From contig CBDUZW010000015.1 in the NCBI GenBank assembly GCA_965371805.1, positions 24,287-88,286 of the forward strand: a DNA stretch of 64,000 bases. The letters run 5' to 3'. Shown piece by piece: positions 1,017-59,982 of this stretch. The translations under genes and the position numbers were made by a program. Each line of letters starts with the position of its first letter. Position 1 is the first letter of the stretch. The stretch is from an uncultured bacterium. GTDB taxonomy: Bacteria; Acidobacteriota; Aminicenantia; UBA2199. The notes beneath the pieces are model-generated. The model was not told the origin of the DNA and made no database searches. It worked only from the letters and a program-made list of their open reading frames with translations.

Positions 1017-1017
1017 T

Positions 1018-8661: not shown

Positions 8662-8696
8662 TCTTATAATTTTACTTAGACATAGGAGATTTTTTC

Positions 8697-16346: not shown

Positions 16347-19300
16347 ATGGAGACTATTTTTTTAAGTTCTTGCAAAAATGCACCTGTTGGATTCAAATAT
16401 AAGACACCAACTGAACATGATCTTTTATACAACCGAATTGCTCTTTATACCGATTCATTAGAAGTCTCTTACTCACTCCTTGATAAATTTCCTGAGAGAG
16501 TAAATGGGCTGGTAATTTCAAAAGGTGAAGCTGTTTCACATTCCCGGATCGGTCCTGAACTCTGGCATTTTGTTATAACCAAAAATATGATTCCAGATCT
16601 ACACAAAACAGTTTTGTTTTTTTTTGAAATGCTATCTAATTCTCAAAATGAAGAAAATGACTCTAAGCAATCTGAAAAAACATATGCCTCACACTTACAT
16701 CTTTTAAAGAATAAAGAAAAAATTAACAATACTATCCTGAAAGCGAATGATATAAAACAGATGATGTCAGACGTATTACAGGCTACACTTGAAATGTTTG
16801 ATTGTGATCGATCCTGGCTTCTTTATCCTTGTGATCCAAAAACAGAAACATGGCGTGTCCCAATGATGCGCACTACTCCAGATTATAAAGATGATCAGGT
16901 TATGGAAACCGATATACCTGTTCTGCCAGAAGATCATGAAATAATGGAAGCTGTCCTTAAAAAAAAAGGCCCTGTCGGATTTGGTTCAGATAATGAAAAA
17001 CCGCTTCCTTCATATATGACACCGGAATTTGGTGTTAAGACACAGCTGCTTATATCTTTGTATCCAAAAACTGGAAAACCATGGATATTTGGACTGCACC
17101 AATGCCGTAATAACCGTTGTTGGACCAAGGAAGAGAGGGAACTTTTAAAGGAGATCAGCCATAGGCTTAGTGATGCTCTAAGTAGTTTGCTTTTTTTGCA
17201 TGATCTAAAAGAAAGTGAAGAAAACTTACGAATTACTCTTAATTCTATCGGAGATGCGGTTATTTCTACTGATACCGAAGGTATCGTTACAGAGATGAAT
17301 CCAGTTGCTGAAAAACTCACAGGATGGTCAATTCAAGAAGCAAGGAAAAAACCTCTGACTGAAATCTTACATGTTCTTAATTCTCATACAAGAGAGCCAG
17401 CTTCAAATCCAGTTAGAAAAGTTTTAGAAAGTGGAGAAGTAATTGGTCTTGCCAATCATACTTTACTTATTTCCAAAGATGGCAGTGAATATCAAATTGC
17501 TGATTCTGCGGCCCCTATAAGAAATACAGATAATCAAGTAACCGGTGTAGTTATGGTATTCAGAGATATATCAAAAGAGTATCAATTGCAGGAAGAATTA
17601 ACTTCAAGTGAAGAAAAATTCCGTACTCTTTTCGAATCATCAATGGATGCAATTCTTTTGTTGGATTTAGATAAAGGATATATAGATTGTAATCCAGCTG
17701 CCTTAAATATGTTTGCCGTTCCAACAAAAAAAAAATTCCTGCAATTAACTCCAGCTGACCTCTCGCCTATATATCAACCAGATGGATCGCTTTCTGTAGA
17801 TTCGGCTAAAAAAGAGATCCAGAAATCTATTGAAAATGGAGTAAACTATTTTGATTGGCAGCATAAAAGATTTGATGGGGATGAGTTTTCAGCATCTGTT
17901 CTTGCTACGAAAGTTAAAATAGACAACAAAATTTTTCTTCAAGGTACGATCCGGGATATTACAAAAAGAAAACAGAGTGAAGTAGAGTTGAGTCATCTAC
18001 GTAATTATCTTTACAATATCATTAACTCAATGCCATCCATATTAATTGGTGTGGATAAAAATTGTAAAATTACGCAATGGAATAAGAAAGCGGAAGAGTC
18101 CACAGGTATTATTGCTGATGAAGCACAAGGTAAAATCCTTTCTAATGTGTTTCCAAGAATGGCGTCGGAAATGGAAAAAATAACTAAAAGTATGAATACC
18201 CGGAAAATAGAGAAAGATTCAAATAGACCTTTTCAGACTGAGAAAGGAATCCAGCATGAAGATGTGACCATATATCCTCTTGTTTCCAACGAAATTGAAG
18301 GTGCTGTTATACGTATTGATGATGTAACAAAAAAGAATAAACTTGAGGAGCAGTTAAATCATAGTAGAAAATTGGATGCCATTGGTCAGCTTGCTGGAGG
18401 AGTGGCCCATGATTTTAATAATATGCTTGGTGGAATAATGGGAGCAGCAGAGCTTCTAAAACATTCCACAAGAGATCTTGATAAAAAAAGTGAGAAGCTG
18501 GTAAAAATGATAATAGAAGCATCAAAACGAGCAGCAGATCTCACATCCAAACTCTTAATATTCGGACGAAAAGGTAAAATAACTTCTAAAAACATTGATT
18601 TACATAGTGCCATAGACGATATAATTGCAATTCTCAAAAGGACAATTGATAAAAGAATATCAATAAGTGTTAATAAAAATGCAAAAATAAGTATAATAAA
18701 AGGAGATAGATCAGAACTGGAAAGTACATTTATCAATATGGGTATAAATGCCAGCCATGCAATGCCAAAGGGCGGAGAATTACATATTAAAACGAAAAAT
18801 GTAAGATTAAGTAAATCATATTGTGATTTGAGTCTCTTTGAAATTAAACCTGGTGAATATATCGAAATTGAAGTAAGAGATATAGGCTTTGGAATACCTA
18901 AGGAAAACCTTAACAAAATATTTGATCCATTTTTTACGACAAAAAAGCAGGGAAAAGGATCAGGACTTGGTTTATCTGCTGCTTATGGGGCTGTTCTGGA
19001 TCATAATGGTGAAATTAAAGTATACAGTGAATTGGAAAAGGGAACTGTATTTTATATTTTACTACCCTGTGCAGAAGAAAAAATTGATTTAGCGACTAAA
19101 GATGAGATCGTTATCATTGGGTCAGGTCATATTCTATTAATTGATGATGATGATATTATTCGTGACACAGGAAAACTTATGCTGGAAGCAATGGGTTATA
19201 ATGTAACTCTCTCAGAAAATGGAGAGAACGCATTGAGAATATTTCGGGAACAACATAATAATATTGATTTGATAATTTCTGATATGATTATGCCCGAAAT

Positions 19301-19490
19301 GAATGGACGTGAAGTGTATTTCGAAATGAAGAAAATTGATAAAAACTGTAGGGTAATGATTTCATCAGGATTCTCAAAAAGTGAGTATATTGATGAATTA
19401 AAAAAAGCAGGACTCTCTGGATTTATCCGAAAACCATTCAGAAATTTTGAGTTGAGTCAACTAATAGCTAATATATTATTAACCAAATAA
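16347..19490 (+). CDS. cytoplasmic hybrid sensor histidine kinase (GAF-like, three PAS, HisKA, HATPase_c, receiver)
   Basis: PAS blocks (NSIGDAVISTD.., FESSMDAILLLD.., INSMPSILIGVD..), H-box GGVAHDFNNML, N/G boxes INASHAM, DIGFGIP, GKGSGLGLS. Receiver with ILLIDDD and IISDMIMPEMNG. No TM segment. Confidence 0.88.
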   Translation: METIFLSSCKNAPVGFKYKTPTEHDLLYNRIALYTDSLEVSYSLLDKFPERVNGLVISKGEAVSHSRIGPELWHFVITKNMIPDLHKTVLFFFEMLSNSQNEENDSKQSEKTYASHLHLLKNKEKINNTILKANDIKQMMSDVLQATLEMFDCDRSWLLYPCDPKTETWRVPMMRTTPDYKDDQVMETDIPVLPEDHEIMEAVLKKKGPVGFGSDNEKPLPSYMTPEFGVKTQLLISLYPKTGKPWIFGLHQCRNNRCWTKEERELLKEISHRLSDALSSLLFLHDLKESEENLRITLNSIGDAVISTDTEGIVTEMNPVAEKLTGWSIQEARKKPLTEILHVLNSHTREPASNPVRKVLESGEVIGLANHTLLISKDGSEYQIADSAAPIRNTDNQVTGVVMVFRDISKEYQLQEELTSSEEKFRTLFESSMDAILLLDLDKGYIDCNPAALNMFAVPTKKKFLQLTPADLSPIYQPDGSLSVDSAKKEIQKSIENGVNYFDWQHKRFDGDEFSASVLATKVKIDNKIFLQGTIRDITKRKQSEVELSHLRNYLYNIINSMPSILIGVDKNCKITQWNKKAEESTGIIADEAQGKILSNVFPRMASEMEKITKSMNTRKIEKDSNRPFQTEKGIQHEDVTIYPLVSNEIEGAVIRIDDVTKKNKLEEQLNHSRKLDAIGQLAGGVAHDFNNMLGGIMGAAELLKHSTRDLDKKSEKLVKMIIEASKRAADLTSKLLIFGRKGKITSKNIDLHSAIDDIIAILKRTIDKRISISVNKNAKISIIKGDRSELESTFINMGINASHAMPKGGELHIKTKNVRLSKSYCDLSLFEIKPGEYIEIEVRDIGFGIPKENLNKIFDPFFTTKKQGKGSGLGLSAAYGAVLDHNGEIKVYSELEKGTVFYILLPCAEEKIDLATKDEIVIIGSGHILLIDDDDIIRDTGKLMLEAMGYNVTLSENGENALRIFREQHNNIDLIISDMIMPEMNGREVYFEMKKIDKNCRVMISSGFSKSEYIDELKKAGLSGFIRKPFRNFELSQLIANILLTK

Positions 19491-41514: not shown

Positions 41515-41850
41515 ATGGAAGTCAGAAAAAACAAATTTCATGAATTATTGAGAGATGAAAAAATCACTGATTTTAATAACGATATTAAAGCATTAGATGA
41601 ACCTGTAAATCTGGAAAACTGTAATTTGAGAGGGGTTGATTTAAGAAAGGCAAACTTAAAAAATGCAAATTTAAAGAACAGCTATTTAAAATTGGCAGAC
41701 CTTAGAGGAGTAGATATGTCGGGAGCTCAATTAGAAGGAGCTTCATTTAATAAAGCAAGAGTCGGTGGAGTCCTCTTTCCCAAAAATGTTACCTCAGCTG
41801 AAATAAGGTTGTCTATTGAATTTGGTACAAGAGTTAGAGTAAAAGATTAA
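41515..41850 (+). CDS. pentapeptide-repeat protein
   Basis: CNLRGVDLRKANLKNANLKNSYLKLADLRGVDMSGAQLEGASF repeats of A(D/N)LXX type. Confidence 0.8.
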   Translation: MEVRKNKFHELLRDEKITDFNNDIKALDEPVNLENCNLRGVDLRKANLKNANLKNSYLKLADLRGVDMSGAQLEGASFNKARVGGVLFPKNVTSAEIRLSIEFGTRVRVKD

Positions 41851-42924
41851 TTAGTATTCCTTATCATTTTCATCTTGAATTTTCTTTTTTTTAATTTGCA
41901 GATAATTAATTGTCTCTAAAGCAATATTCCTCTCAATTCCAATTAGACCAGGCAATATTTTTTGCCATTTAGAGAGCAATATTAAAACCTGTTCATTTTT
42001 AAGTTTTCCAAAACTATTTTTAGTTTTATAGACAAATCCCTGCTTAGAGAGTAATGAAAAACTTGATTTTTTCTTCCATTTACCTGTATCTTTTATATAC
42101 TCTGTTTTGAATCTCATTTCTGAACTCTTAGAGATCTTATTTTCTTTTTTTAAAACTATGGCCTCTCTGACTATATCTTCATCATTAAAGGTTTTTTCCT
42201 CCATCTCTACTACAGTTTGAGGTTTTCGGGATCCGCGTTCTTTTTTTTGATTTATCTGTTTTCTCTCAATGGAATCTGTACTATTACCATATTTGGACTT
42301 CTCTCCTATCCCGCCCTCAATCGGGCTGCTTTTCGTTATGTTTACTCCATCAACATTCCATGTTGATTTTGATTTTATTTTATCTGCTAGAACAATTTTC
42401 GCTGGTTCTTTTTTCCTTCTACTCTTTTTTTTACTAAATATTTTTAATGTGCCTTTTGAATCTTTTTTGTCTTTTTCCATATCTTTGCTTCTATTTGCGA
42501 ATGATTCCTCTTTTGACAATCCGCCTTCTACCATGGGAATGTCTCTTTTTATTCTTTTGGTTTGGAATTTGAGACTTTCTTCTTTTACTTCCGGTTGAGT
42601 CTTATAAAAATTGCTGTAGTAAAATCCAATTAAGAAAACAAACATTATGCTAGCTGCTATTGACAGTGACCTGGTAATATTGGACTTTCTCACTTTTTTT
42701 AGCTCAGCTAAAGTTGAAGAGGTGATTTTATAAACATCAAAACAATCATGACATGAATTTAAATGTTTAAGGACTTTCTCCCTCTCTTCAAATGGAAGTT
42801 TATTTTCAATAAATTCAGAAAGAGTATTGTCAGATAGACATGTAGTCTCTTTTTTCTCTTCCATTTTAGTTGAAAGCAATTTCCCCAGTTTTACATTTTC
42901 TATACTCATCTCATAAACCTTCAA
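41851..42924 (-). CDS. anti-sigma factor (zf-HC2 N-terminus, single TM, Lys-rich extracytoplasmic part)
   Basis: HLNSCHDCFDVY zinc-finger anti-sigma motif and TM LSIAASIMFVFLIGFYY. Located directly downstream of a sigma-factor gene. Confidence 0.6.
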   Translation of the reverse strand: MKVYEMSIENVKLGKLLSTKMEEKKETTCLSDNTLSEFIENKLPFEEREKVLKHLNSCHDCFDVYKITSSTLAELKKVRKSNITRSLSIAASIMFVFLIGFYYSNFYKTQPEVKEESLKFQTKRIKRDIPMVEGGLSKEESFANRSKDMEKDKKDSKGTLKIFSKKKSRRKKEPAKIVLADKIKSKSTWNVDGVNITKSSPIEGGIGEKSKYGNSTDSIERKQINQKKERGSRKPQTVVEMEEKTFNDEDIVREAIVLKKENKISKSSEMRFKTEYIKDTGKWKKKSSFSLLSKQGFVYKTKNSFGKLKNEQVLILLSKWQKILPGLIGIERNIALETINYLQIKKKKIQDENDKEY

Positions 42925-42968
42925 TAATATTTGTCGGACAATTTAATAATAATTCTTTAATTTTAACA

Positions 42969-43823
42969 TTAAAATAGATCATTTGTATTTATCCCGTTTT
43001 TGGCTAATATTTTTTTACATTTTTTTAATATTCTATCTATTCTCTTATAAACAGCCCTTTTATTTATATTTAATAAAATTGAAATAGTTTCAACTCGTTT
43101 TTTTTTATCATCCTCTTCATTAAAAAACCTGAGTTTTATTATAAACTTTTCTTCAGCAGTCAGATTAGAAAGAATTAAATCCAGGTTTTTATTAATGGTC
43201 TCTTCTTTCTCTTCAGAAATCATTTGAAATTCCGGAGTTTTATTTTTATCCTTTACAAGGACCTCGCCTTCACTAGTATTTATACCTTTTTTTACAGGAG
43301 ATTCCGGGAAGTTTTCAAGGTCACTCTTATTATATTTTTTTTTCCCCTTTATCTTATCAACAATCTCTTCAATCTTATTCAAAGTGATTTTTTTTTCATT
43401 CTCATGTGTAACGATATTATAAAATTCCCTGATCGAATTCTTTTCGATAAAAACACTCTTATATATCCTTAAACCAAGATCTCCATATTCTTTTGCCCTA
43501 TCTTTTTCTCGACTTCTTCCCATTTTACCTCTGATAATATCTACAAACTTTCTTGAAATTATAGCTGTTAGATAGGTTGTAATCTTAGCTCTTCCATTAA
43601 AATTTTTTAAAATTTTGAAATCTTCCTTCCTCAGAGTGTCAAGAACCACATTTGATAATTCCAAAGACCTATTTTCAATTTCCAGTTTTTCGCTCTCACC
43701 GGTTTTAAAACTATCAGCAAAGTTTTTTTTTACTATCAAATAACTTTGTTTTTCAATAAACCCTAGATTCTCATGCAATATTTTTTCATATGGCTTATTG
43801 AAATTATAATTTATGGTAGTCAT
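42969..43823 (-). CDS. ECF-like sigma-70 family factor with a long insertion between regions 2 and 4
   Basis: Region-2-like ITTYLTAIISRKFVDIIRGK and region-4-like LTAEEKFIIKLRFF...ISILLNINKRAVYKRIDRILKKCKKIL. The ATG at 43823 avoids overlap with the upstream gene; the ORF track runs to 43907. Confidence 0.65.
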   Translation of the reverse strand: MTTINYNFNKPYEKILHENLGFIEKQSYLIVKKNFADSFKTGESEKLEIENRSLELSNVVLDTLRKEDFKILKNFNGRAKITTYLTAIISRKFVDIIRGKMGRSREKDRAKEYGDLGLRIYKSVFIEKNSIREFYNIVTHENEKKITLNKIEEIVDKIKGKKKYNKSDLENFPESPVKKGINTSEGEVLVKDKNKTPEFQMISEEKEETINKNLDLILSNLTAEEKFIIKLRFFNEEDDKKKRVETISILLNINKRAVYKRIDRILKKCKKILAKNGINTNDLF

Positions 43824-43828
43824 TTTTA

Positions 43829-44476
43829 CTATTTTATTTTTATATGAAGCTGAATTTCTACTAAATGAGATTCCTGCATATTCTGGGTAGTATTTGCCCA
43901 GGTCCAATTATATTTATTTACAAAAAACATCTTTGAGTAAAGTAATTTTTCTCTCCAAGAAATTTTATTTGACCCCTTTCTAATTCCCTTTCTGTATTTA
44001 AGATTAGGCTTTCTTTTCAATATTCCATAACTTTTTGGAAGATTTAATTTTGCGTTTATATCTTTATCTAATTTTGATATGTCTAACTTTTCTGCCCCAA
44101 ATTCAAGGAAAAGATTTCTTTTATTTCTTATAATAAATTCGATTTCCGGCAGAACAATGCTTTTATTGTTAAATACTTCGTTTTTATTCGTTTTAAAATT
44201 AAAGAATTTCATTTCAAAATCATTTACCTTTCCTTTTTTATAATAATAGATAAAATCTTTATCCTCATCAAAGCCAATTGTTCCATTAAGTTCTCCACTA
44301 TATGTATAATTACCTCTGATCTTTGTATCTCCATATGTTTTAAAGAAGCCTGTAATTTTAAAATCTATTTTTAGCTCCCATTCCATAGAATCATTTACCA
44401 AATTATTTATATCTCCATTTATTGATAAATTCAATAGAGGTAATAATATAAAAATTAATCTAATAAACTGTTTCAA
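43829..44476 (-). CDS. secreted hypothetical protein
   Basis: Signal peptide MKQFIRLIFILLPLLNLSING. Overlaps the dnaE stop by 17 nt. No recognisable motif. Confidence 0.5.
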   Translation of the reverse strand: MKQFIRLIFILLPLLNLSINGDINNLVNDSMEWELKIDFKITGFFKTYGDTKIRGNYTYSGELNGTIGFDEDKDFIYYYKKGKVNDFEMKFFNFKTNKNEVFNNKSIVLPEIEFIIRNKRNLFLEFGAEKLDISKLDKDINAKLNLPKSYGILKRKPNLKYRKGIRKGSNKISWREKLLYSKMFFVNKYNWTWANTTQNMQESHLVEIQLHIKIK

Positions 44477-47400
44477 CAGAGAGGACTCCTTTTATTTTTT
44501 TTAACTCAATTACAACTGTATTATCGGGCTTTAATCCCTGATCATTCGAATCAATCACCGTTTTATGTTTTTGCTCATTATTAATAATCATTATTTGATA
44601 TGGTGTTTTCCCAACATTATTAGTTAGAGTGCTTTCAAACTTGTCAGTAAAATCATCATCAATAAAAGAGTAATCTATTTTTATAAAGATCTTTTTTGCC
44701 TCCTTATTGATATAATCTTCCAATTTTACAATTTTACTAAGGAATAGATCAGGACTATTATTGTCATTATCTGATTTATTTCCTTCGATATAATAGGGTG
44801 CATCAACTTCTAAATTCAGCTTTATTTCATCCCATGTTACTTTTTTTTCACCATTTTTATTCCCATTTCCATTATTCCATGGTTTTTTTGTACTATTAAA
44901 GACTAAGATAGATTGTCTCCCAGTCAGATCTTCAAAAAAAATATTGCCATAAAAAGTACCTTTTTTTGATCTTTTCTGGATAAATTCAGTAATAACGCCA
45001 ACAAGTTTAACTACTTTACCCTTAAAATCAATTAATTCTGATATTGATGTATTAGAGAGCTTTTTTGTCTCTTTAGTATATTTTTCAAGTGGATGGTTAC
45101 TAATATAAATACCGGTTATCTCTTTTTCACCTTTAAGGATTTGTTGCTCTGTCCATTCATCCATATCCATGAATTTTTTCTGAATAATAATTTTATTAAG
45201 ACTATCTTCTCCGGTAAACAGTGACCTTTGACCATTACTCTTGTTTTTTTCTATCACTCCTGCCTGGGCTATCGTCTCTTCAACACTGGAGAACAAAGCA
45301 TTCCTCTTCAAATTAAATGAATCTAATGAGCCCGACTTAATTAAACTTTCTAAAACGGCTTTATTTACCTTTGAAAGTTCTATTCCTGTAATAAAGTCTG
45401 TATAACTTTCAAATCCTCCAGAACTGTTCCGGCATTCAATAATGCTTTTTAATGCTGCAGTACCTACATTTTTCAGTCCCTTAAGACCAAATCTTATTGA
45501 ACTATGTGTCTCAGCTCTGAAATTCTCAATACTCTTATTAATATCTGGAGGCAGTATATCAATTCCCATTTTTTTACTCTCGGAAATATACTGTATTATT
45601 TTTGATCCCTTTGATGCTTTTGATGATTCCGATGTGAGATGGGCAGCCATAAAATAAACGGGAAAATGCGCTTTTAAATATGCTGTTTGATATGCTATAA
45701 AACCATAAGCAGTTGAATGAGATTTATTAAAACCATATTGCGCAAACTCTTTCATCTGAGAAAAAAGTTTTTCCGCTTTCTTTTTATTGTATTTTTTTTT
45801 TACAGCTCCAGCCACAAATGCCGCTTCCAGAGCAGGGATTTTTTGTTCAAGCTTCTTTCCCATAACTTTTCTCATTTCATCAGCTTTTCCAAGAGAAAAC
45901 CCGGCTAAGGTAACCGATATCTGCATAACCTGCTCTTGATACACAATAACCCCAAATGTATCTTTCAGTATGGGTTCAAGTACTGGAAAGGCATATACAA
46001 CTTTTTCTTTGCCTAGTTTTCTCTTAACATAACTATCAGCCATTCCGGAATTTAATGGGCCCGGTCTATATAGAGCATTCAATGCAATAAGATCTTCAAT
46101 TCTTTCAGGTTTTGATCTTTTCAAAAAATCCCGCATCCCTGAACTTTCAAATTGAAAAATTCCATCAGTATTTCCAGCTTGAAAGACCTTATACGTTTTT
46201 TCATCATCAAGAGGGATTGTATCAAGGTCAATTTTCTTTTTTTCCACATCATAAATTTCATCTAGAATATTTTTTATAATTGTTAAGGTATTCAATCCCA
46301 GGATGTCCATTTTGAGCAGTCCAACTTCTTCGACTTCATCTTTCTCAAACTGTGTGACAATCTCATCCTTAGTTTTATAAAGAGGCATAAACTCAGTCAT
46401 CTTTCTTGGCGCAATTACAACAGCCGCTGCATGCATTGATGTATGCCTGACATTATTCTCCAGCTTCAATGCAAATTCAATCAATTTTTGTCTCTCAGGT
46501 TTTAATTTAATTGCATCTCGTAATTCTGAATTGGATTCAATTTCACTTTTTAGTTCTACTTTTGGCCCATCCTGGATCATCTTTGCAATTTGATTAACAT
46601 CACTTAATGGAAGTTCCAATACCCTGCCAATATCCCTGATAGCCATCTTTGCCTTCATTTTTCCAAAGGTTACAATCTGGGCCGTATTTTCCTTCCCATA
46701 CTTGTTTCTAATATAATCAATTACCTCGCCCCTTCGTTCAGTCTCAAAATCAAGGTCTATATCAGGCATTGAGATTCTTTCAGGATTTAAAAATCTTTCA
46801 AAAAGTAAGTCATATTCCAGCGGATCAACATTGGTAATTCCCATTACATAAGCTACTAAACTTCCAACAACTGAGCCCCTCCCGGGTCCAACAGGAATAT
46901 TATTATCTTTAGAAAATTTTATTATATCCCAGACAATTAAAAAGTATCCTGGAAATTCCATCTCCCTTATTTTATCAATCTCATAACTGAGTCTTTTTTC
47001 ATAAACATCAATACTCTGTCGCTTATTTAATAAAGAATCTCTCAGTCTTTCAAAACCATCTCTACAAATTTTTTCAAAATATCCATCAATTGTAAATTCT
47101 TCAGGAACGGAAAAAGTCGGAAGTGAAAGTTCCCCTAATTTAAAATCAAAATTACATTTTGCTGCAATATCAAAACTATTACTAATCGCATCAGGAATAT
47201 CTGAGAAAAGCTCACTCATCTCTTCAGTTGACTTAAGATACATTTCACTGGTTTGCTTTTTCATGGGTCTGTTCTGATCACTTAAAACATTGCCGGTTTG
47301 CAGGCAAATTAAAATCTCTCTCGCATCCGAATCTTCCTTTTCAAGATAATGTACATCGTTGCTTGCGACAAGAGGAATAGAGAGGTCTGAAGATAATTGC

Positions 47401-47975
47401 TGCAATTTTGGAATTACCTCAATTTGCTGACTCAAACCATGATCCTGCATCTCTAAATAATAATCATCTTTGAAAGTCTCTTTATACCATTTTGCTGCTT
47501 CATAAGCCTTTTCTTCTCTATTATGAAGTAAATTATATGGAATTTCCCCCTGAATACAGGCAGAAAGTATTACTAAACCGTCCTTATACTTTTCCAATAC
47601 TTCTTTGTCAATTCTAGGCTTTCTATAAAACCCTTCAAGATATGCTTCAGTTATCAGTTCACATAAATTTCTGTATCCCTGTTTATTCTTTACAAGAGCA
47701 ACTAAATGATGATAGTTTATCTCTCCTTTTTTTCTGTCCGGCTTACTGAACCTTGAGTTTTCTGCAACATAGAGTTCTGAGCCGATGATTGGCTTTATTC
47801 CGTTTTTTATTGCTTTTTTATAAAAGTTTACTGCTCCTAAAATATTTCCATGATCTGTCAAAGCGACTGCAGGCATATTCAACTGCTGAGCCTTTTTTAT
47901 TAAACCGGGAATCTTCAGGTTTGAATCTAATAGACTAAATTCAGAGTGTAAGTGTAAGTGAATAAAGCTATTCAT
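44460..47975 (-). CDS. dnaE: DNA polymerase III alpha subunit
   Basis: PHP domain FIHLHLHSEFSLLDS, palm PGRGSVVGSLVAY.. and PDIDLDF, fingers YRPGP, and an OB fold at the C-terminus. Confidence 0.95.
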   Translation of the reverse strand: MNSFIHLHLHSEFSLLDSNLKIPGLIKKAQQLNMPAVALTDHGNILGAVNFYKKAIKNGIKPIIGSELYVAENSRFSKPDRKKGEINYHHLVALVKNKQGYRNLCELITEAYLEGFYRKPRIDKEVLEKYKDGLVILSACIQGEIPYNLLHNREEKAYEAAKWYKETFKDDYYLEMQDHGLSQQIEVIPKLQQLSSDLSIPLVASNDVHYLEKEDSDAREILICLQTGNVLSDQNRPMKKQTSEMYLKSTEEMSELFSDIPDAISNSFDIAAKCNFDFKLGELSLPTFSVPEEFTIDGYFEKICRDGFERLRDSLLNKRQSIDVYEKRLSYEIDKIREMEFPGYFLIVWDIIKFSKDNNIPVGPGRGSVVGSLVAYVMGITNVDPLEYDLLFERFLNPERISMPDIDLDFETERRGEVIDYIRNKYGKENTAQIVTFGKMKAKMAIRDIGRVLELPLSDVNQIAKMIQDGPKVELKSEIESNSELRDAIKLKPERQKLIEFALKLENNVRHTSMHAAAVVIAPRKMTEFMPLYKTKDEIVTQFEKDEVEEVGLLKMDILGLNTLTIIKNILDEIYDVEKKKIDLDTIPLDDEKTYKVFQAGNTDGIFQFESSGMRDFLKRSKPERIEDLIALNALYRPGPLNSGMADSYVKRKLGKEKVVYAFPVLEPILKDTFGVIVYQEQVMQISVTLAGFSLGKADEMRKVMGKKLEQKIPALEAAFVAGAVKKKYNKKKAEKLFSQMKEFAQYGFNKSHSTAYGFIAYQTAYLKAHFPVYFMAAHLTSESSKASKGSKIIQYISESKKMGIDILPPDINKSIENFRAETHSSIRFGLKGLKNVGTAALKSIIECRNSSGGFESYTDFITGIELSKVNKAVLESLIKSGSLDSFNLKRNALFSSVEETIAQAGVIEKNKSNGQRSLFTGEDSLNKIIIQKKFMDMDEWTEQQILKGEKEITGIYISNHPLEKYTKETKKLSNTSISELIDFKGKVVKLVGVITEFIQKRSKKGTFYGNIFFEDLTGRQSILVFNSTKKPWNNGNGNKNGEKKVTWDEIKLNLEVDAPYYIEGNKSDNDNNSPDLFLSKIVKLEDYINKEAKKIFIKIDYSFIDDDFTDKFESTLTNNVGKTPYQIMIINNEQKHKTVIDSNDQGLKPDNTVVIELKKIKGVLSVETVY

Positions 47976-48258: not shown

Positions 48259-48287
48259 TTGACAATCAATTAGTTTTATCCTAATAT
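48259..48287 (+). promoter_or_regulatory. candidate sigma-70 promoter of the three-gene operon
   Basis: TTGACA (48259-48264), 17 nt, TAATAT (48282-48287), 34 nt upstream of ATG 48321. A second TTGACA lies at 48244-48249. Confidence 0.45.
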
Positions 48288-48320
48288 TTAAACTACTTAA
48301 AATAAAAATAAGTTAATTAA

Positions 48321-49508
48321 ATGAAAAGTATTAAATTTGCAGTTATAGGTGATTTGCATTGTCAATCAGAAAGTGATTTAGACGACAGTCGAAGAGAATC
48401 TTTTTTGATTGCAGGAGTACCAAGGGTACCTTCTCAAAATCATCCCGTTCAGTCACTTTTTGACATAGAAACGAAATTTAAAACCGATATTGTAATATGT
48501 ACAGGTGATATTTCAAACAAGTCTTCCTCATCAGGATTATCTCATGGATGGGATCTATTACGTTATGATATAAAAGAGGTTTTTAATGCAGAAATAGTAC
48601 TACCAACAATTGGTAATCATGATGTAAATTCAAGATCAAAAGACATCTCTCCATTTGATGTTGCGAAAAACATTCATCCTAATTTTCCCTTTTCGGACAA
48701 TGATGCCAAAAATTCTTTTTGGAATAATGGATTTTATTTGTATCAATTTAGAGACACATCAAGTGTTCTAATATTAAACACAACTCACGATCATTATAAT
48801 GAAAAAAAAGCATTAAGAGGTACTTTTAGTAGCAAGCAAATCCAAAGCCTAGATAAATATTTAAAAAACCAGTCTTTAAATCCCATAAGAATTGCTAATA
48901 TGCATCACCATCCAATCCTTCATTCATTTGTAGATTATGGGTCTAATGATGTTTTGGAATTTGGTGATCAATTGTTAAAGGTTTTATCCAAACACAAGTT
49001 TAACTTTGTTATACATGGACACCGTCATCAACCAAGAATACAAAGATATATTGATGGAGGTAATCCTTTTCATATATTTGGTTCTGGATCATTTTCAGCA
49101 TCTTTAGCTGACAAACTATATACAAGAACTCGCAATGTATTTCATTTAATTGAACTTAAAACTGAGAATACTAATAAAGTATCTGGTTCAATTCTTACAT
49201 GGGAATATAATTTTGGTATCGGTTGGAATCCAACAACAAAACAATCTGCAGAATTTCCTCATTTTGTGAGTATTAATTCTTTACCAACAGTAGATCTAGC
49301 AACTAAAATCAAGAAGTTTTTTAACTCAAATAAAAATAAAAAAATGTTGATAAATTCTGAAATGAAATGTGAAATACCAGAAGTTCAAATGTTACTACCT
49401 AACGAATTAGAAGAATTACAAAGTGAGATAAAAACCGAAATGTTGCAGTTGGAAATTGATCATTATGGATTTGTAAAAAGTATTGGACGATTGGAGCATG
49501 TTATATGA
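48321..49508 (+). CDS. calcineurin-like metallophosphoesterase with ~100-aa C-terminal extension (operon gene A)
   Basis: All five metallophosphoesterase motifs are present: GDLH (D11/H13), GDISN, GNHD (98-101), MHHHP, HGHRH (232-236). The HHHP and GHxH spacing resembles Icc/CpdA-type more than SbcD/Mre11-type enzymes. Confidence 0.85.
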   Translation: MKSIKFAVIGDLHCQSESDLDDSRRESFLIAGVPRVPSQNHPVQSLFDIETKFKTDIVICTGDISNKSSSSGLSHGWDLLRYDIKEVFNAEIVLPTIGNHDVNSRSKDISPFDVAKNIHPNFPFSDNDAKNSFWNNGFYLYQFRDTSSVLILNTTHDHYNEKKALRGTFSSKQIQSLDKYLKNQSLNPIRIANMHHHPILHSFVDYGSNDVLEFGDQLLKVLSKHKFNFVIHGHRHQPRIQRYIDGGNPFHIFGSGSFSASLADKLYTRTRNVFHLIELKTENTNKVSGSILTWEYNFGIGWNPTTKQSAEFPHFVSINSLPTVDLATKIKKFFNSNKNKKMLINSEMKCEIPEVQMLLPNELEELQSEIKTEMLQLEIDHYGFVKSIGRLEHVI

Positions 49509-51340
49509 GTAATGGCACTTATGGTGCATTTAATGCAAGGCTATTAACCCCAATTCAGATTGCTAGAAAATTTGTCCCATTACCTCAATTTCAAAATTTA
49601 GTACATAGTTCACATTCAGTTTTACTGGGTCCAAGGGGTTGTGGCAAAACCACATTATTTAAAATGCTTAGTAGGCCAGCATTAGAAACGTGGAAAACAG
49701 AGAGAAGATCACAATATAAAAAATATAATCCATTTGAATATCCAGAATTTGAAGCAATTTATATACCTTCTGACTCTAGATGGTCTTATGAGTTATTAGA
49801 AATAGAAAACGTCCCAAAATTAGATAAAAAATATGCTACACGTATTCAAAGAGTTATGGTTTCTATTAGTGTTTTAACTGCTATTATTGATACATTAATG
49901 TATATTAAAGAAATAGACAATGAATTAGAGATTAATATATGCAGCTCCATAATAAAGATATGTAAACTTAAAAATTGCCTTCCTAGATTTTCTCGTGTAA
50001 AATTATCACTAAATTTTATTGTCACTGAATTACGTGGCACACTAAATATGGGAAATATTGATATTTTAGATGATTATTTTAGTAAATTATCTGTAAGTTT
50101 TCTTGCACATACAATGGATACTCCTGGGGATTTATTAGATGAGATTAGTTTTATTATAAAAAATAAAATAACAATTCAAAAATGGGCATTATGTTTTGAT
50201 GAATTAGAGATAGCACCAGAATGGCTAAGAACTGAATTATTCGACTCATTAAGAAGTGTTAAACAAAATTGTATTTTAAAATTAACATATTATCCGGTTA
50301 TTCCAAAGGAGTATATAAGTATAGCTGAGCCAGGTGACGATTGGCAGCCTATTAGATTATGGTACTCACATATAACTGATTCTAGATCTTTCTGTGATAA
50401 TTTAACTACAGACTTTCTCCAAAAGTATTTTAAAAATGAGAATCAAAAAATCAATCCATCAATCTTTTTTTCATCATCAGATCTAATAGATGAGGAAATT
50501 AAAGAAATGAACCCAAAATCATATGAAAGAGGCTCAACATTTTATAACTGTATGAACGAATTGCAAAAAACAGATCATTCATTTTACAACTTACTAAAAA
50601 AGAAGAAATTGTCTCCTGAAGATCCATATACTGAATCTACAGAATTTAGAGCTCAATTTTTCAGGAAAATCAAGCAGACTGTTATTATGAGAAAAGAATT
50701 TATGAAAGGTGAAAAATTTAGATCCAGAAAGATAACTGATGTTTATTCTGGCAAAGAATCTATTTATGCAATTAGTGAAGCGAATCCGAGATGGCTTCTT
50801 AGATTATTAACAGATTTTGTTAATAGATGGAAAAGTGATCCCAAGGTTAATAAAAACAATCATCCAATAATTTCCAAAACCATTCAAGCTACAGTCTTAA
50901 ATAACCATTCACGACGTTTTCAAGCTAAATTAGGAGCAACTCCAACACCATCATCAGACTTAATAAAACTTTATAATATACATAACCTAACTCTTTTTGA
51001 ATTTCTTGACGTAATAGGAAAAAAAATCCAAGGCGAATTCTACAAAAAAGAGTTCCCATTAGAACCAGTAGGAAGTTTTTATGTAGATCCAACTATTGCA
51101 AAACCATTTATTTCAGTGATAAGAAAAGCAATTAATATTGGTGCTTTAGTTTATATAGGGAAAGCTGATGAAGAAACACCTTATGAAATAAGGAAATCAA
51201 GATTCAGGCTATCCTTTATGTTGGCCCCATTATACAAAATCCCATTAAGAACTTTACGAAGTATTTCCTTAAGAAATCTTTTATGGAAAGAGGATGAAAA
51301 TGATACTCCGAACCTATTTAATAAGAAAAAATTAAAATGA
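49505..51340 (+). CDS. P-loop NTPase, family unassigned (operon gene B)
   Basis: Walker A LLGPRGCGKTT (G42-T50, nt 49628-49654) and Walker-B-like ALCFDELE (D232/E233, nt 50186-50209). ATGA start/stop overlap with gene A. Confidence 0.75.
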   Translation: MSNGTYGAFNARLLTPIQIARKFVPLPQFQNLVHSSHSVLLGPRGCGKTTLFKMLSRPALETWKTERRSQYKKYNPFEYPEFEAIYIPSDSRWSYELLEIENVPKLDKKYATRIQRVMVSISVLTAIIDTLMYIKEIDNELEINICSSIIKICKLKNCLPRFSRVKLSLNFIVTELRGTLNMGNIDILDDYFSKLSVSFLAHTMDTPGDLLDEISFIIKNKITIQKWALCFDELEIAPEWLRTELFDSLRSVKQNCILKLTYYPVIPKEYISIAEPGDDWQPIRLWYSHITDSRSFCDNLTTDFLQKYFKNENQKINPSIFFSSSDLIDEEIKEMNPKSYERGSTFYNCMNELQKTDHSFYNLLKKKKLSPEDPYTESTEFRAQFFRKIKQTVIMRKEFMKGEKFRSRKITDVYSGKESIYAISEANPRWLLRLLTDFVNRWKSDPKVNKNNHPIISKTIQATVLNNHSRRFQAKLGATPTPSSDLIKLYNIHNLTLFEFLDVIGKKIQGEFYKKEFPLEPVGSFYVDPTIAKPFISVIRKAINIGALVYIGKADEETPYEIRKSRFRLSFMLAPLYKIPLRTLRSISLRNLLWKEDENDTPNLFNKKKLK

Positions 51341-52275
51341 ACTTATCCAGTATTAATCAAATTGAGTTTAAAAATTTACTATCTATGGACATAGATCTAG
51401 TAATTTGTTCAAGCGGTTTTGAGACCAGATCTTCTATACTTGCAAAGAGTTTGTCAATTTATAAGAATAGAATAGTTATTGGATTTAAAGAGCATAAAAA
51501 TGAAAATTCTAGAACAAAAAATGACAAAATATTTTCTTCTTATAAATATGAATATAAAGAATTATCAGGAAACTCAAATTATGAAGCAGGGAATTTATTA
51601 AATTTCTTATTAAATGGAATAAATAAAAGTACATGCAATATACTAATAGACATTTCTTCAATGACAAGATCATGGTATGGCGAATTTTTAAAGACCTTAT
51701 CAAAAAATAACAAATTTTCTCATTTAAATTGTTATTTTACTTATGTTCCTGCAGCAAACCTACAATCACATAATCACTACCCACCAAATGAAATTGTTGC
51801 TCCAATTCAAGGTTTCTCTGGTTTGGGGCTTGCCAATAAGCCTGTAGCACTTGTAATTGGTTTAGGACATCACGAAAATAGAGCTCTTGGAATTAATGAA
51901 GAATTAGATCCTGCTTTAACTTCATTATTTATTGCTGATCCAAGTGTCAATGAAATGTTTCCAGAAAGAGTAAGAAAAATGAATAAAGATATATTAGAAA
52001 TGGCTAATCAAAAATTTCAATTCAAATATTCTATATTTAATCCAATTTCAACATTTAACAAACTATCTTCTTTTTGTTCTGGTTTGTCAAAAAATTACCA
52101 TGTTGTTTTGACCTCTTTGGGCCCTAAAATTTTTGGACTTTGCTGTTTTTTAACAGCAATAAATGAACCAGAAATAAGTGTTTGGCGTATATCTGCAGGT
52201 TCAAGGACAAAGCAAGAAGATATAAAACCTAGTAATTATAAGCTTGTTGTTGAATCGAAATGGGTTTTAAATTGA
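51337..52275 (+). CDS. hypothetical protein, no recognisable motif (operon gene C)
   Basis: 312-aa ORF. ATGA overlap with gene B supports co-translation. No TM segment or signal peptide. Confidence 0.55.
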   Translation: MNLSSINQIEFKNLLSMDIDLVICSSGFETRSSILAKSLSIYKNRIVIGFKEHKNENSRTKNDKIFSSYKYEYKELSGNSNYEAGNLLNFLLNGINKSTCNILIDISSMTRSWYGEFLKTLSKNNKFSHLNCYFTYVPAANLQSHNHYPPNEIVAPIQGFSGLGLANKPVALVIGLGHHENRALGINEELDPALTSLFIADPSVNEMFPERVRKMNKDILEMANQKFQFKYSIFNPISTFNKLSSFCSGLSKNYHVVLTSLGPKIFGLCCFLTAINEPEISVWRISAGSRTKQEDIKPSNYKLVVESKWVLN

Positions 52276-52395: not shown

Positions 52396-53061
52396 TTATA
52401 TTTTTATTCTTAATTCAGCCATATTTTTATTTAGAGATATAACTTTCTCAGATTGAGAATGATTTGAGTATGTTTCCCAATCCGGAGTATACTCTTCTGA
52501 TTGATTGCCCCAGGTTGTCCACCCTTTTCTTGTTCCTCTTCCAAAAAGTTCTAAAAACGGTCCCCAACTGCAAGATTCAATAAGATCATATTGTTCATCC
52601 GGCTTCCTGCTATGCTCCCTTTTCCGAGAAGATATAATGTTTTCCTGACTTCTTCCTGGTTGTAATGTTCTAATGTTTTTACCACGTACACCAAATAGAA
52701 TTATTTCAGTAACATTTCTAAAATAAAAACCGACCCCGCGCCTGTCAGGTCCCCCATCTTTTCTAATTTTGTACCAGATAAGATTTGTTTTATATTTAAA
52801 TCCCCAACTTTCCATTACCTGCATACCTTCTGCTAAGAGTGCGTTTGGAACCCATAAATACAGATGTGCTTTTTCTTCTGCAATTGATTCTACCGGTAAA
52901 TCTTTTATCTCTTGCAATTTCATTGTGGGATAGCGTGATAATCTTTTATGTTCAGGTGCCATTTTACCTGTTCTGTTTTGAAACTGCCACGGAGGGTCAG
53001 CTAAAATTGTAGAAAATTTTTTTTCTCCAATAAATTTTATTAAGTCTTTAGATGCATTCAT
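52396..53061 (-). CDS. MT-A70 family N6-adenine DNA methyltransferase
   Basis: Motif IV ILADPPWQF (DPPW at nt 52987-52998), then YPTM, HLYLWV and WGF.YKT.LIW.K blocks typical of MT-A70. Confidence 0.88.
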   Translation of the reverse strand: MNASKDLIKFIGEKKFSTILADPPWQFQNRTGKMAPEHKRLSRYPTMKLQEIKDLPVESIAEEKAHLYLWVPNALLAEGMQVMESWGFKYKTNLIWYKIRKDGGPDRRGVGFYFRNVTEIILFGVRGKNIRTLQPGRSQENIISSRKREHSRKPDEQYDLIESCSWGPFLELFGRGTRKGWTTWGNQSEEYTPDWETYSNHSQSEKVISLNKNMAELRIKI

Positions 53062-53072
53062 ATTTATTCTTC

Positions 53073-53873
53073 CTATTCATTTTTTTCTTTTTTCCAATCT
53101 GTTATTATATCAGGTCTTATACCAAAAACTAAAACAGGACAACCACCATGACGACCAGCATTAAGACGATAAAGTAGTTTTCCCATCCATGTAGTACTTG
53201 CTCCATATTTTTGTTTACATAGTTTGGGACTGCCGTCATTATTATAATTAATGCTGCCATCCTTTTTTAATAATGGTGTAGTATCAAAAACAGAATTAAG
53301 TTTTTCACTTCGAGTTATTAAGGCAGCAACACTTATAAGCCCACATTCGTGAAACATCCTGAAAGCATATAAGTCACGATCATAAGTCTGGTCTTTACTA
53401 TTCCACTCCATATCCAATGCAATTTTACCTTTTACATAATCAATTTTATGCCCATCAATATAGTTATATAGATAAATCGGTTCCTTTTTTGGCAATTTAT
53501 GTTTTTTTAATTTTCCACTTGATAAAATTTCTTCACTTTGTTCATCAAGATGAACAATTAAATCACCTTTAATACGAGTTTCCAACCAATTATACGGACG
53601 TAACCGCTCTGAAAACTGTTTTGGGATAACTGATTCGTTCCCACCCGGCATTGCAATATCTTTTAGAGTTATTCTAAATTTTAACAATGCTTCTTCAATC
53701 TCATCCATTTCATTTGGAAAAGAAGTTTTCAAAATAGATGCAGCATGTCTGTAACTATAGACATCATATAGCTCAAGGACTTCCTTCTTAATATGTTTGC
53801 TGATTTCTTCTTTTGAATCTGCATTATGATTTGGAACTTGTGCTACATCATTGTCACTTATTACTTCTGCCAT
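53073..53873 (-). CDS. putative type II restriction endonuclease (PD-(D/E)xK-like core; possibly BamHI/BglII-like)
   Basis: Lies 11 nt upstream of the methyltransferase on the same strand. Candidate catalytic block IDYVKGKIALDMEWNSKD (D...E-x-N/K pattern). The ATG at 53873 (MAEVISDN) is preferred over the hydrophobic ORF extension to 53975. Confidence 0.5.
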   Translation of the reverse strand: MAEVISDNDVAQVPNHNADSKEEISKHIKKEVLELYDVYSYRHAASILKTSFPNEMDEIEEALLKFRITLKDIAMPGGNESVIPKQFSERLRPYNWLETRIKGDLIVHLDEQSEEILSSGKLKKHKLPKKEPIYLYNYIDGHKIDYVKGKIALDMEWNSKDQTYDRDLYAFRMFHECGLISVAALITRSEKLNSVFDTTPLLKKDGSINYNNDGSPKLCKQKYGASTTWMGKLLYRLNAGRHGGCPVLVFGIRPDIITDWKKEKNE

Positions 53874-54060
53874 ATACAGATTATGCAAAATAATAAAAAT
53901 GATGTCAAGAAAAAATGTGATAATTATAATAATGTCATCATTTTTTTTGACATTTTCCTGCTTATATTTTATCATTAGACCTAGGACAGACTCCTAGATG
54001 AAGTTTTAAAAAAAAGTGACAGCAAAAATAGAGTCAAATGACTTAAAAAGGAGATAAATA

Positions 54061-55587
54061 ATGTCAATTATTTTAAACGGTTCAGGATTAACAATTGAAA
54101 AAGTAGTAAAGATCGCAAGATTTAACGAAAAAGTTGAGTTGAGTTCAGATGCTTTGGAAAGAATTAAAGTATGCAGGGCAATGCTGGAAAAAAAGGTTGA
54201 TGCAAAAGAGATCATGTATGGTGTCAATACCGGGATCGGAGAGTTTTCAGAGGTAGTACTCGAAGATGATCAAATAGAGGACTTTCAGAAATATCTTGTT
54301 TATAACCATGCTGCAGGTATCGGTGATCCAGCTCCTCTTGAATATGTAAGAGGCGCAATGGCAGGAAGAATAAATGTCCATGCTCACGGAAACTCAGGCT
54401 GCAGACCCATCATTACCCAGACACTTATAGAAATGTTAAATAAGGGAGTAACTCCCTTTGTATGTCAAAAAGGCTCTGTTGGGGCGTCAGGAGATCTGGC
54501 TCCAATGTCTCAGGTAGCACTCCTATTAATGGGAGAAGGAAAAGCCTATTATAAAGGTGAATTACTTGATGGAAAAGTCGCAATGGATAAGGCTGGAATT
54601 CCAATTCCAGGATTAAAAGCAAGAGATGGTCTTGCTACAATAAATGGTTCTAATGTTTTAACTGCAATGAGTGCAATCTTTCTTTATGATGCATTTAACT
54701 GGATGAAACAGGCTGAAATCGCAGCAGCTATGTCATTAGAAGCTCTAAAAGCAAATATGAAACCATATACTCCTCTCTTACATGAAGTAAGAGGATTTAA
54801 AGGTGCAATCCGTTCTGCAAAAACAATATTAAAAATGGTAAAAGGCGGAGATCTTGTTGAAGGCAAGGTTAAGTGTAAGGTTCAGGACGCTTACTCTATG
54901 AGATCAACACCACAGGTAATCGGAGCTGCTGTTGATGCCTTGGAATATGGAAGATCACAGGTTGAAATTGAATTAAATGGTGTTGGTGATAACCCGATAT
55001 TCTTCCCTGAAAAAGGAATTCAGATTTCAGGTGCAAACTTTCAAGGATCCCCTGTTTCCGTACCAATGGATATGGCAGGAGCTGTTGTAACAATGGTAAG
55101 TGTTATGTCAGAAAGAAGGATGAACAGATTAAATAATCCGGCATTAAGTGTGGGACTCCCGGCATTTTTAACAAAGGGTGCAGGTATGTTCTCAGGTCTT
55201 ATGTTAAGTCAATATACTGCTGATATGCAGATAGTTGAGCAGAGAATTTTGTCAGCTCCTGCCTCTATCCAGTCAATCCCTGCAGCAGCAGATCAGGAAG
55301 ACTTTGTCTCAATGGGCATGAACACTGCAATTAAGAATTTCCAGATTCTGGATAATGCCTATGGTATTTTAGGAATTGAATTAATGGCAGCGGCTCAGGC
55401 TCTTGATTTTAGAGAATTTAAATTTGGAAAAGGGGTTACAAAGGCAAAAGAAGTAATTAGAAGACATGTTGACTTTCTTGAAATTGACCGCCCACTCTAT
55501 GATGATCATACAAATATGAAAGAGCTTGTAAAATCATGTGAAATATTAGAAGAAGTGGAAAAAGAGATAGGAAGTTTGGATTTATAA
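54061..55587 (+). CDS. hutH: histidine ammonia-lyase family (MIO-dependent aromatic amino-acid lyase/mutase)
   Basis: MIO-forming GSVGASGDLAPMS, YGVNTGIGEFS, INGSN, QDAYS.R..PQV, NPALS and QEDFVSMG. Alignable by eye to Bacillus HutH along its full length. Confidence 0.85.
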   Translation: MSIILNGSGLTIEKVVKIARFNEKVELSSDALERIKVCRAMLEKKVDAKEIMYGVNTGIGEFSEVVLEDDQIEDFQKYLVYNHAAGIGDPAPLEYVRGAMAGRINVHAHGNSGCRPIITQTLIEMLNKGVTPFVCQKGSVGASGDLAPMSQVALLLMGEGKAYYKGELLDGKVAMDKAGIPIPGLKARDGLATINGSNVLTAMSAIFLYDAFNWMKQAEIAAAMSLEALKANMKPYTPLLHEVRGFKGAIRSAKTILKMVKGGDLVEGKVKCKVQDAYSMRSTPQVIGAAVDALEYGRSQVEIELNGVGDNPIFFPEKGIQISGANFQGSPVSVPMDMAGAVVTMVSVMSERRMNRLNNPALSVGLPAFLTKGAGMFSGLMLSQYTADMQIVEQRILSAPASIQSIPAAADQEDFVSMGMNTAIKNFQILDNAYGILGIELMAAAQALDFREFKFGKGVTKAKEVIRRHVDFLEIDRPLYDDHTNMKELVKSCEILEEVEKEIGSLDL

Positions 55588-59908: not shown

Positions 59909-59982
59909 CGCGGGGTGGAGCAGTCTGGTAGCTCATTGGGCTCATAACCCAAAGGTCATAGGTTCAAATCCTATCCCCGCTA
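59909..59982 (+). tRNA. initiator-type tRNA-Met (CAT)
   Basis: CGCGGGG...CCCCGC(T)A with an unpaired 1:72 position. Three consecutive G:C pairs close the anticodon loop (GGG-CTCATAA-CCC). T arm ATAGG-TTCAAAT-CCTAT. Close to E. coli tRNA-fMet. Confidence 0.88.

Follow-up and report, generated by a model that had tools for sequence, protein, structure and literature searches.

Which function is served by three tightly packed genes that lie between dnaE and a restriction-modification (R-M) gene pair, in a 64-kb stretch of contig CBDUZW010000015.1 from an uncultured bacterium of the Aminicenantia (Acidobacteriota)? The whole stretch is called the window below, and the three genes are called A, B and C (Table 1). 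They had been proposed, in an earlier note made from the letters alone, as an undescribed defence-type system composed of a metallophosphoesterase, a P-loop NTPase and a protein resembling nothing recognisable. The reading that we favour, with a probability of about one half, is that A-B-C is a horizontally acquired immune module directed against mobile elements, in which C would act as the sensor, B as the switch and A as the effector. The elements countered are probably phages.

The three open reading frames (ORFs) and the two ATGA start/stop overlaps that join them were read directly in the sequence, and overlapping or abutting colinear genes in the relatives agree with the proposal of a translationally coupled unit. 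Related loci were sought via gene B homologues in genomes, metagenomes, assemblies, plasmids and phage genomes. Pattern-based scans contributed at least 8 true loci in genomes and at least 10 in metagenomes, and all locus frequencies given here describe this small, non-random sample. A-, B- and C-like genes do co-occur elsewhere, being found in the same order and on one strand in all 28 distinct loci other than that of the window, where the contig permits. These loci span at least 8 phyla (Bacteroidota, Gemmatimonadota, Actinomycetota, Acidobacteriota, Verrucomicrobiota, Myxococcota, and the Alpha-, Beta- and Gammaproteobacteria). Labelled hosts are Bacteroidia, Flavobacteriaceae, Longimicrobiaceae, Solirubrobacteraceae, Acidobacteria, Luteolibacter and Polyangia, together with Gemmobacter, Methylobacterium, Sinorhizobium, Paucibacter, Cupriavidus, Pseudoalteromonas and Aliivibrio.

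Gene A, the predicted effector, matches the calcineurin-like phosphoesterase family PF00149 at 6.5e-13. All five motifs that had been pointed out are intact, namely D11/H13, GD(62-63)ISN, GNHD (98-101), HHHP (195-198) and GHRH (233-236), and the residues D11, H13, G62-D63, G98-N-H-D101, H195-H197 and H232-G-H234 are invariant across 19-20 homologues. Sixteen of the 19 aligned A-family members match the winged helix-turn-helix (wHTH) family PF24408 (wHTH-Calcineurin_assc; best 8.1e-15). The match of the window gene itself is weak and under cut-off (E = 0.063), and its C-terminus aligns with that of the matching members. Against the PDB, the A-family profile finds Lmo2642 (6.6e-16), Rv0805/Icc (1e-9) and GpdQ, whereas matches to Mre11/SbcD (6e-4 to 0.3) are confined to the N-terminal motifs. 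Because the former are far stronger, gene A is placed by its sequence in the Icc-like small-phosphodiester clade and not in the Mre11 nuclease clade. The best NCBIfam matches (SpdA, CpdA and, more distantly, the anti-phage phosphoesterase DS9_1) are all far under their cut-offs, with for example 34 bits for DS9_1 against a cut-off of 420. The effector had been guessed to be either a nuclease or an Icc/CpdA-like phosphodiesterase, and the nearest relatives speak for the second option. Hydrolysis of nucleotides or other small phosphodiesters or phosphoanhydrides is the most likely activity of gene A, ahead of an Mre11-like nuclease function. The comparison with SbcCD/Mre11-Rad50, where a metallophosphoesterase gene likewise lies beside an ATPase gene, was rejected on these profile matches and on the nature of gene B, an AAA+ protein without the coiled coil of SMC/ABC ATPases.

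Gene B had been described as a P-loop NTPase, which its motifs bear out, and it can be assigned more specifically to the AAA+ family PF24389 (ORC-CDC6-like). It matches this profile at 5e-93 (313 bits, cut-off 27) over nearly the full length, residues 7-589 aligning with positions 4-571 of 571. The Walker A motif GPRGCGKTT (G42-T50, with K48) and the Walker B motif CFDELE (D232/E233) are intact and invariant in 26 homologues, as are many Arg and Lys residues. In an AlphaFold2 (AF2) model with a predicted local distance difference test score (pLDDT) of 85, strand 2 is followed by a large helical insert, and the C-terminal part has helical/winged domains. The top Foldseek matches are ORC4, RADAR RdrA, MalT, PCH-2, archaeal Orc1 and RuvB, which agree with one another but are all weak (E >= 3.6e-3, TM score 0.2-0.36). 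The retron Ec78 ATPase, found in the PDB at 4e-4 with the gene B profile, was judged a non-specific match given the PF24389 and fold matches. Gene B is predicted to be an ATP-dependent switch, a scaffold or a DNA sensor.

Gene C has no Pfam match, and it had been said to match nothing. This no longer holds, since eleven CARF6 profiles of PADLOC-DB recognise it, the best (PDLC01915) over its full length at 7.4e-66. Its AF2 model (pLDDT 94.3) has two Rossmann-like halves, and Foldseek aligns it over about 300 columns with the SAVED domain of Cap5 (E = 3.5e-4, TM score about 0.4). The CARF domains of Cam1, Csm6, Can2 and Cad1 are also found, with a probability of about 1.0 for Cam1, Csm6 and Can2 as for Cap5. 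No internal duplication is detectable by sequence (hhalign, probability 0.7%), so the two-domain reading comes from the structure model. According to Makarova et al. 2014 (PMC4012209), strand 4 of CARF domains is followed by a signature of the ligand pocket, [DN]x[ST]xxx[RK]. In gene C it reads D105-I-S107-S-M-T-R111, directly after the strand 99-105; D105 and S107 do not vary among 41 homologues, and conservation of R111 is at least 90%. Moreover, the polar residues S25-S26 close the first core strand (E21-26), the next residue, G27, is conserved to at least 90%, and a second invariant element, G262-P-K264, lies in the C-terminal half. Gene C is therefore a CARF/SAVED-superfamily protein, and it is predicted to sense a nucleotide ligand. 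It shares with the known sensors of this superfamily the CARF6 match, the Rossmann-like fold, the DxSxxxR signature and the polar residues of the first strand. It differs from them in two ways: no effector domain is fused to it, and in place of a Cas10, CD-NTase or SMODS cyclase its linked partners are a methylase, a phosphoesterase and an AAA+ ATPase. Clustered at 50% identity, the C family has 2651 representatives at E <= 1e-3 and at least 1039 at <= 1e-30, nearly all of them proteins of about 310 residues that stand alone.

Could such a unit be a housekeeping or regulatory operon, devoted to cyclic-nucleotide turnover or to chromosome replication or partition? It adjoins dnaE, gene B is ORC/Cdc6-like and gene A resembles Icc/CpdA, all of which would fit, but its distribution leaves hardly any room for this explanation. 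Three metagenomic relatives with dnaE genes 87% (L026/27), 83% (L029/30) and 81% (L028) identical to that of the window were compared. The trio and the R-M pair are missing beside dnaE in all three, where thiG, purL or an unknown gene lies upstream instead, while the block formed by dnaE, three small genes and a pentapeptide-repeat protein keeps its order in the 87% and 81% relatives. Every relative examined has something different upstream of dnaE, which suggests an integration hotspot there. The nearest homologues of genes B and C are 47% and 53% identical, respectively, and lie in unrelated contexts scattered over a patchy set of phyla. The operon is also carried on conjugative or large plasmids (S. 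meliloti pSmeSM11b, Methylobacterium, Cupriavidus), and related copies neighbour an integrase, a resolvase, the insertion sequences (IS) IS110, IS21 and IS66, or the Tn7 gene TniB. Other neighbours are defence-like, such as Pycsar, KAP NTPase and PIN/SocA toxin genes and YhcG-like nucleases. The proposal that the module is accessory rather than core is thus confirmed, and it is horizontally mobile. No gene B homologue was found among 50,697 phage genome records. In the window, the trio has about 29% [G + C] against 33-38% in the flanking housekeeping genes, a mild dip only, and a search for island borders found low-complexity AT-rich repeats but no att-like direct repeats. Genes of the module are disrupted in 4 of the 28 loci, by a frameshift, a split, an IS110 insertion or a transposase fragment (Table 1). 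Such frequent disruption, a further point against a housekeeping role, suggests a fitness cost or a rapid turnover, consistent with the turnover of defence genes.

The three genes do not make up the whole of the usual system, and a fourth had been overlooked. A DNA adenine methylase gene of the D12/Dam type abuts the trio in 20 of the 25 assessable loci, tightly linked and often overlapping the trio genes, and this likely alters the logic of the system. Five methylases were tested against NCBIfam and score 189-220 bits on TIGR00571 'dam' (cut-off 115). The gene lies on the strand of the trio in 18 loci, 5' of A or 3' of C, and on the opposite strand in two (L007, L035). On plasmids, the operon bears the RefSeq labels 'Dam family methyltransferase / metallophosphoesterase / hypothetical / hypothetical'. 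With the methylase in the usual four-gene operon, the system appears tied to N6-adenine methylation. In five loci the flanks are long enough and yet no methylase is present: those of Pseudoalteromonas rubra, P. donghaensis and Aliivibrio finisterrensis, and two others (L017, L037). Among taxon-labelled loci, the methylase is present in 11 of 12 from outside the Gammaproteobacteria versus none of three from within, a contrast with a rough hypergeometric p of 0.009 (4/455, by hand arithmetic) in a small and non-independent sample. The orders to which Pseudoalteromonas and Aliivibrio belong presumably carry a chromosomal Dam.

This linkage brings the system close to R-M and BREX, and the main alternative, which we consider possible if somewhat unlikely, is that the Dam-family methylase marks self DNA, that gene B and the wHTH of gene A recognise unmethylated sites in incoming DNA, that gene A cuts or blocks it, and that gene C is only a regulator or adaptor. 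The Dam-less copies would also fit, as methylation by hosts that we presume to be Dam-positive could protect them. ATPases of the ORC/Cdc6 clade are core components of BREX and related methylation-based systems (PMC12839542), and MADS, BREX and DISARM discriminate self from non-self through N6-methylation. The wHTH of gene A and the helical insert after strand 2 of gene B point in the same direction. The likeness to BREX is one of class, since both have an N6-adenine methylase, an ORC/Cdc6-clade ATPase and a protein of a phosphoesterase superfamily (PglX, BrxC and PglZ in BREX). There is no family-level homology: the methylase is Dam-type and not PglX, gene A is calcineurin-like and does not have the alkaline-phosphatase fold of PglZ, and gene B belongs to PF24389 and not to BrxC/DUF499. 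BrxA, BrxB and BrxL are absent, and PADLOC gives no BREX match. Genes A and B match BREX, DISARM or MADS profiles at the P-loop level at most.

Among the points against this alternative is the variation of the effector. In a Candidatus Methanoperedens locus (L011), a DNA methylase gene is followed by a fusion of 858 residues, in which a protein kinase domain lies N-terminal to the ORC-CDC6-like ATPase of PF24389, and then by a C-like gene. A B-like gene adjoins a C-like gene on a Thermoplasmatales contig (L009). In L017, a ParB_N gene and a gene of the PRTase-CE family (PF24390) lie directly 5' of A-B-C where a Dam methylase is missing, and the system may have two effectors in this locus. From these three cases it follows that genes B and C, usually with a methylase, are the constant part and that the effector is exchangeable. 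Effector swapping around a sensor or regulator core is, as a principle, typical of conflict systems (PMC12871103). A protein kinase and a PRTase-CE are unable to restrict DNA directly, and a scheme of the R-M type would moreover leave the strictly conserved CARF-type ligand pocket without a role. Gene A is also nearer to small-molecule phosphodiesterases than to Mre11/SbcD nucleases, and the window copy lies beside a methylase of another family, where strict site-matched restriction should be autoimmune unless the specificities coincide. Some loci of this collection have further neighbours. An archaeal S-adenosylmethionine synthetase gene is convergent just 3' of the C-like gene in the Methanoperedens locus. 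On a Methylobacterium plasmid (L031), genes for a CHAT-domain protein and a second, unrelated metallophosphoesterase adjoin the four-gene operon and probably represent another conflict system on the same small plasmid.

In the immune module as we favour it, gene C would bind a nucleotide-derived ligand, gene B (a STAND-related AAA+ protein) would couple this signal, and probably DNA binding too, to an ATP-dependent assembly, and gene A, tethered by its C-terminal wHTH, would act as the phosphoesterase effector. Growth arrest or abortive infection would be the likely outcome. CARF and SAVED domains are the canonical sensors of cyclic oligoadenylates (cOA) and cyclic dinucleotides (CDN), and gene A resembles cyclic-nucleotide phosphodiesterases, so that the trio could be an ancillary module served in trans by a cyclase encoded elsewhere (type III CRISPR, CBASS or Pycsar), gene A being its effector or off-switch. 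We give this explanation little chance. No cas10, CD-NTase or SMODS gene was found beside the trio among Pfam-scanned or annotated neighbours, no CRISPR array was found in the 64-kb window, and the enzyme that is consistently linked is a DNA methylase. The only cyclase gene next to a trio, a Pycsar gene directly 5' of A-B-C in Pseudoalteromonas rubra (L005), comes with a PycTM effector and forms a unit apart. This cyclase has an AGS-C domain, and a Tn7-type TniB gene lies directly 3' of A-B-C in the same locus.

A ligand from methylation-marked DNA is proposed because no cyclase is linked to the module and a methylase is linked instead. The preferred candidates are mono- or oligonucleotides containing N6-methyladenine (m6A), released when marked DNA is degraded during infection: the Dam methylase of the operon would write the mark, gene C would read the products, gene B would assemble and gene A would deplete nucleotides. 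In a variant of this scheme, gene C would read the methylation state of the breakdown products and thereby tell self DNA from invader DNA. The proposal draws on PUA-Cal-HAD of E. coli ECOR28, in which N6-methyl-deoxyadenosine monophosphate (m6-dAMP) from Dam-methylated DNA activates a calcineurin-type effector that depletes deoxynucleoside triphosphates (PMC12871103). Related modules of PUA and calcineurin have a genomic link to N6-adenine methylases but not to restriction enzymes (PMC12871103). Both systems have a calcineurin-superfamily effector and a small-molecule sensor (predicted here) and lack a cyclase. They differ in that the sensor is CARF/SAVED-like and not PUA, an AAA+ ATPase is interposed and the HAD partner is missing: Pfam and NCBIfam gave neither a PUA nor a HAD match in genes A, B and C. 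Moreover, PUA-Cal-HAD, whose PUA-like sensor is fused to an effector of the Calcineurin-CE type, has been validated experimentally, whereas the roles of genes A, B and C are predictions. By this analogy, a CARF/SAVED alarm without a cyclase, set off by the breakdown of methylated DNA, is a tentative and, as it stands, unlikely specification of the immune module.

Several observations weigh against the favoured immune module or its proposed ligand. The full-length match of gene C to the SAVED domain is modest and lacks a duplication signal at the sequence level, and every structural match of gene B is weaker than E = 1e-3. The module encodes no ligand-producing enzyme, and the ligand is a guess. 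The wHTH of gene A and the ORC-like gene B fit a direct recognition of DNA equally well, which favours the R-M-like model. The disrupted relatives imply that any single copy may be decaying, and the window copy is without the Dam gene that accompanies most relatives, so that it may be incomplete or work differently. Finally, neither GATC (271 occurrences in the window, 246 expected) nor AGATCT (37, 35 expected) is avoided or enriched, which is uninformative on Dam or BglII-type methylation.

No Dam-family ORF (TIGR00571/PF02086) was found anywhere in the 64-kb window, and the local copy would therefore need another source of m6A, possibly the MT-A70 methylase with a DPPW motif that is convergent with gene C. 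This methylase could be a non-orthologous stand-in for that of the relatives. An Acidobacteria locus (L035) has its D12 methylase gene convergent directly 3' of gene C, in the same geometry. Most likely, the MT-A70 methylase and the BglII-family endonuclease form an independent Type II R-M unit in the same island; no such endonuclease was found beside the trio in any other locus examined. As AGATCT is not avoided in the window, the recognition site of this unit is probably not simply an unprotected AGATCT. Codons 1-34 of the endonuclease ORF do not look like coding sequence, and its start is probably M35 (near 53873).

Alternatively, the window copy could be a non-functional remnant whose Dam gene was lost when the MT-A70/BglII cassette was inserted or replaced it, an explanation compatible with the other readings. 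The three nearest relatives (L012, L013, L015) all carry the methylase that is missing here, disrupted copies are common, and gene A has no Shine-Dalgarno site. Decay is nevertheless clearly unlikely for this copy, because the three ORFs are full-length with every invariant catalytic and ligand residue kept, the start/stop overlaps are preserved, gene B has a good Shine-Dalgarno site (GGAG, 8 nucleotides 5' of its ATG), and intact Dam-less operons are present in three gammaproteobacteria.

The absence of a match to any named defence system was upheld by searches of PADLOC-DB v2 and NCBIfam r20. The former gave matches at the P-loop level only, to mad8 (1.5e-4, 32 residues) and PDC-S68, by which membership in BREX, MADS or PDC systems was rejected. 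In NCBIfam r20, which includes many recent antiphage families, nothing was above cut-off for genes A, B and C. The word undescribed is too strong all the same, since the components sit in public family databases: B in PF24389, the A family in PF24408 and the C family in the CARF6 profiles. The components have thus been catalogued before, and their association probably too. We take PF24389, PF24408 and PF24390 to come from the Aravind-laboratory survey of nucleotide-targeting effectors by Nicastro et al. 2023, and the CARF6 profiles to derive from Makarova et al. 2020. The preprint on PUA-Cal-HAD cites Nicastro et al. 2023 as the source of its Calcineurin-CE analysis (PMC12871103). No description of the gene combination was found in a full-text literature search, Makarova 2020, Nicastro 2023 and Burroughs 2015 being outside the searched text, and the Dam linkage itself cannot be claimed as new. 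The likeness to the conflict systems of PF24389, PF24408 and PF24390 is extensive: gene B is a full-length PF24389 member, most of the A family has PF24408, a PRTase-CE occurs in one locus, and a nucleotide-degrading effector would be gated by an NTPase. The window copy differs by its missing methylase and its weak PF24408 match. The locus is accordingly a copy of a kind that has been catalogued computationally and is unnamed, and it is atypical in having no Dam gene.

Nearly all that is understood of CARF/SAVED sensors concerns the reception of messengers that cyclases make. Here, the separate Pycsar unit aside, a sensor of the CARF type is never linked to a cyclase, and its partners are a Dam methylase, an ORC-like ATPase and an effector that can be swapped. 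If the alarm from methylated DNA were real, one operon would hold the writer, the reader, the switch and the effector of a damage-associated signal, and the ligands of CARF domains would extend beyond cyclase products. The identity of the ligand would also test whether bacteria use breakdown products of methylated DNA as a danger signal in general, a possibility that has come up only recently, with PUA-Cal-HAD. Knowing ligand and function would give a role to two Pfam families and one CARF clade, whose members mostly still bear the RefSeq label 'hypothetical protein'. The module is widespread, and the sensor family is large, with at least 1000 clusters at 50% identity on chromosomes and conjugative plasmids of many phyla. 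The window locus itself is more modest, being one more methylase-less copy next to a Type II R-M pair, with which it shares a small defence island.

Table 1. Positions of the features discussed, in the window unless a related locus is named (lengths of genes A, B and C are from the ORF list)
Feature	Position	Strand	Remarks
Gene A	48321-49508	+	395 residues; metallophosphoesterase (residues 1 to ~290) and C-terminal wHTH-like domain
Gene B	49505-51340	+	611 residues; ORC/Cdc6-like AAA+ ATPase
Gene C	51337-52275	+	312 residues; stand-alone CARF/SAVED-superfamily protein, two Rossmann-like halves
Sigma-70-like promoter candidate	48259-48287	+	TTGACA-17-TAATAT, 10/12 match, 34 nucleotides 5' of gene A
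dnaE	44460-47975	-	neighbour of the trio
dnaE block conserved in relatives	41515-47975
MT-A70 methylase, DPPW motif	52396-53061	-	PF05063, 1.9e-33; convergent with gene C
BglII-family endonuclease	53073-53975	-	PF09195, 6.6e-48; partner of the MT-A70 methylase
hutH	54061-55587	+	neighbour beyond the R-M pair; ubiE/menG-type methyltransferase also nearby
Three tRNA genes	2763-2918 and 59909-59982
Large ORF	3656-6988		1110 residues
Large ORF	8697-13577		1626 residues
Large ORF	16347-19490		1047 residues
L005, Pycsar genes and TniB gene	5563-7502 and 11892-12722		Pseudoalteromonas rubra
L011, methylase, kinase-PF24389 fusion and C-like gene	7854-12782		Candidatus Methanoperedens
L012	8800-9989		gene A frameshifted
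L015	11813-14442		gene C split by IS110 insertion
L017, ParB_N and PRTase-CE genes	2-1781		directly 5' of A-B-C
L024	3355-5306		gene B split
L031, CHAT and second metallophosphoesterase genes	8469-11869		Methylobacterium plasmid
L037	3935-6023		gene A interrupted by transposase fragment; decayed locus

The neighbours of the trio are as the earlier note had described them, with dnaE on one side and the R-M pair, hutH and a methyltransferase of the ubiE/menG type on the other. The signals attributed to the operon fared less evenly. The TTGACA-17-TAATAT element is present, but promoter-like matches in this AT-rich stretch are not significantly commoner than in shuffled sequence (43 observed vs 34.3 +/- 5.6), and it is therefore a plausible candidate for the promoter of gene A. 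The supposed Shine-Dalgarno contrast with neighbouring housekeeping genes is weak, because hutH has AAGGAG where gene A has no site, but dnaE is also without one. One of the small genes of the dnaE block has a zf-HC2 anti-sigma motif. The helicase gene that follows the block is RecG in the window and in the 81% relative, and of the DEAD/DbpA type in the 87% relative. Beyond these relatives, the next tier of dnaE genes is about 65% identical and is labelled Aminicenantes or 'Deferrimicrobium'. The window as a whole has a [G + C] content of about 30%, no rRNA gene, three tRNA genes and three very large ORFs.

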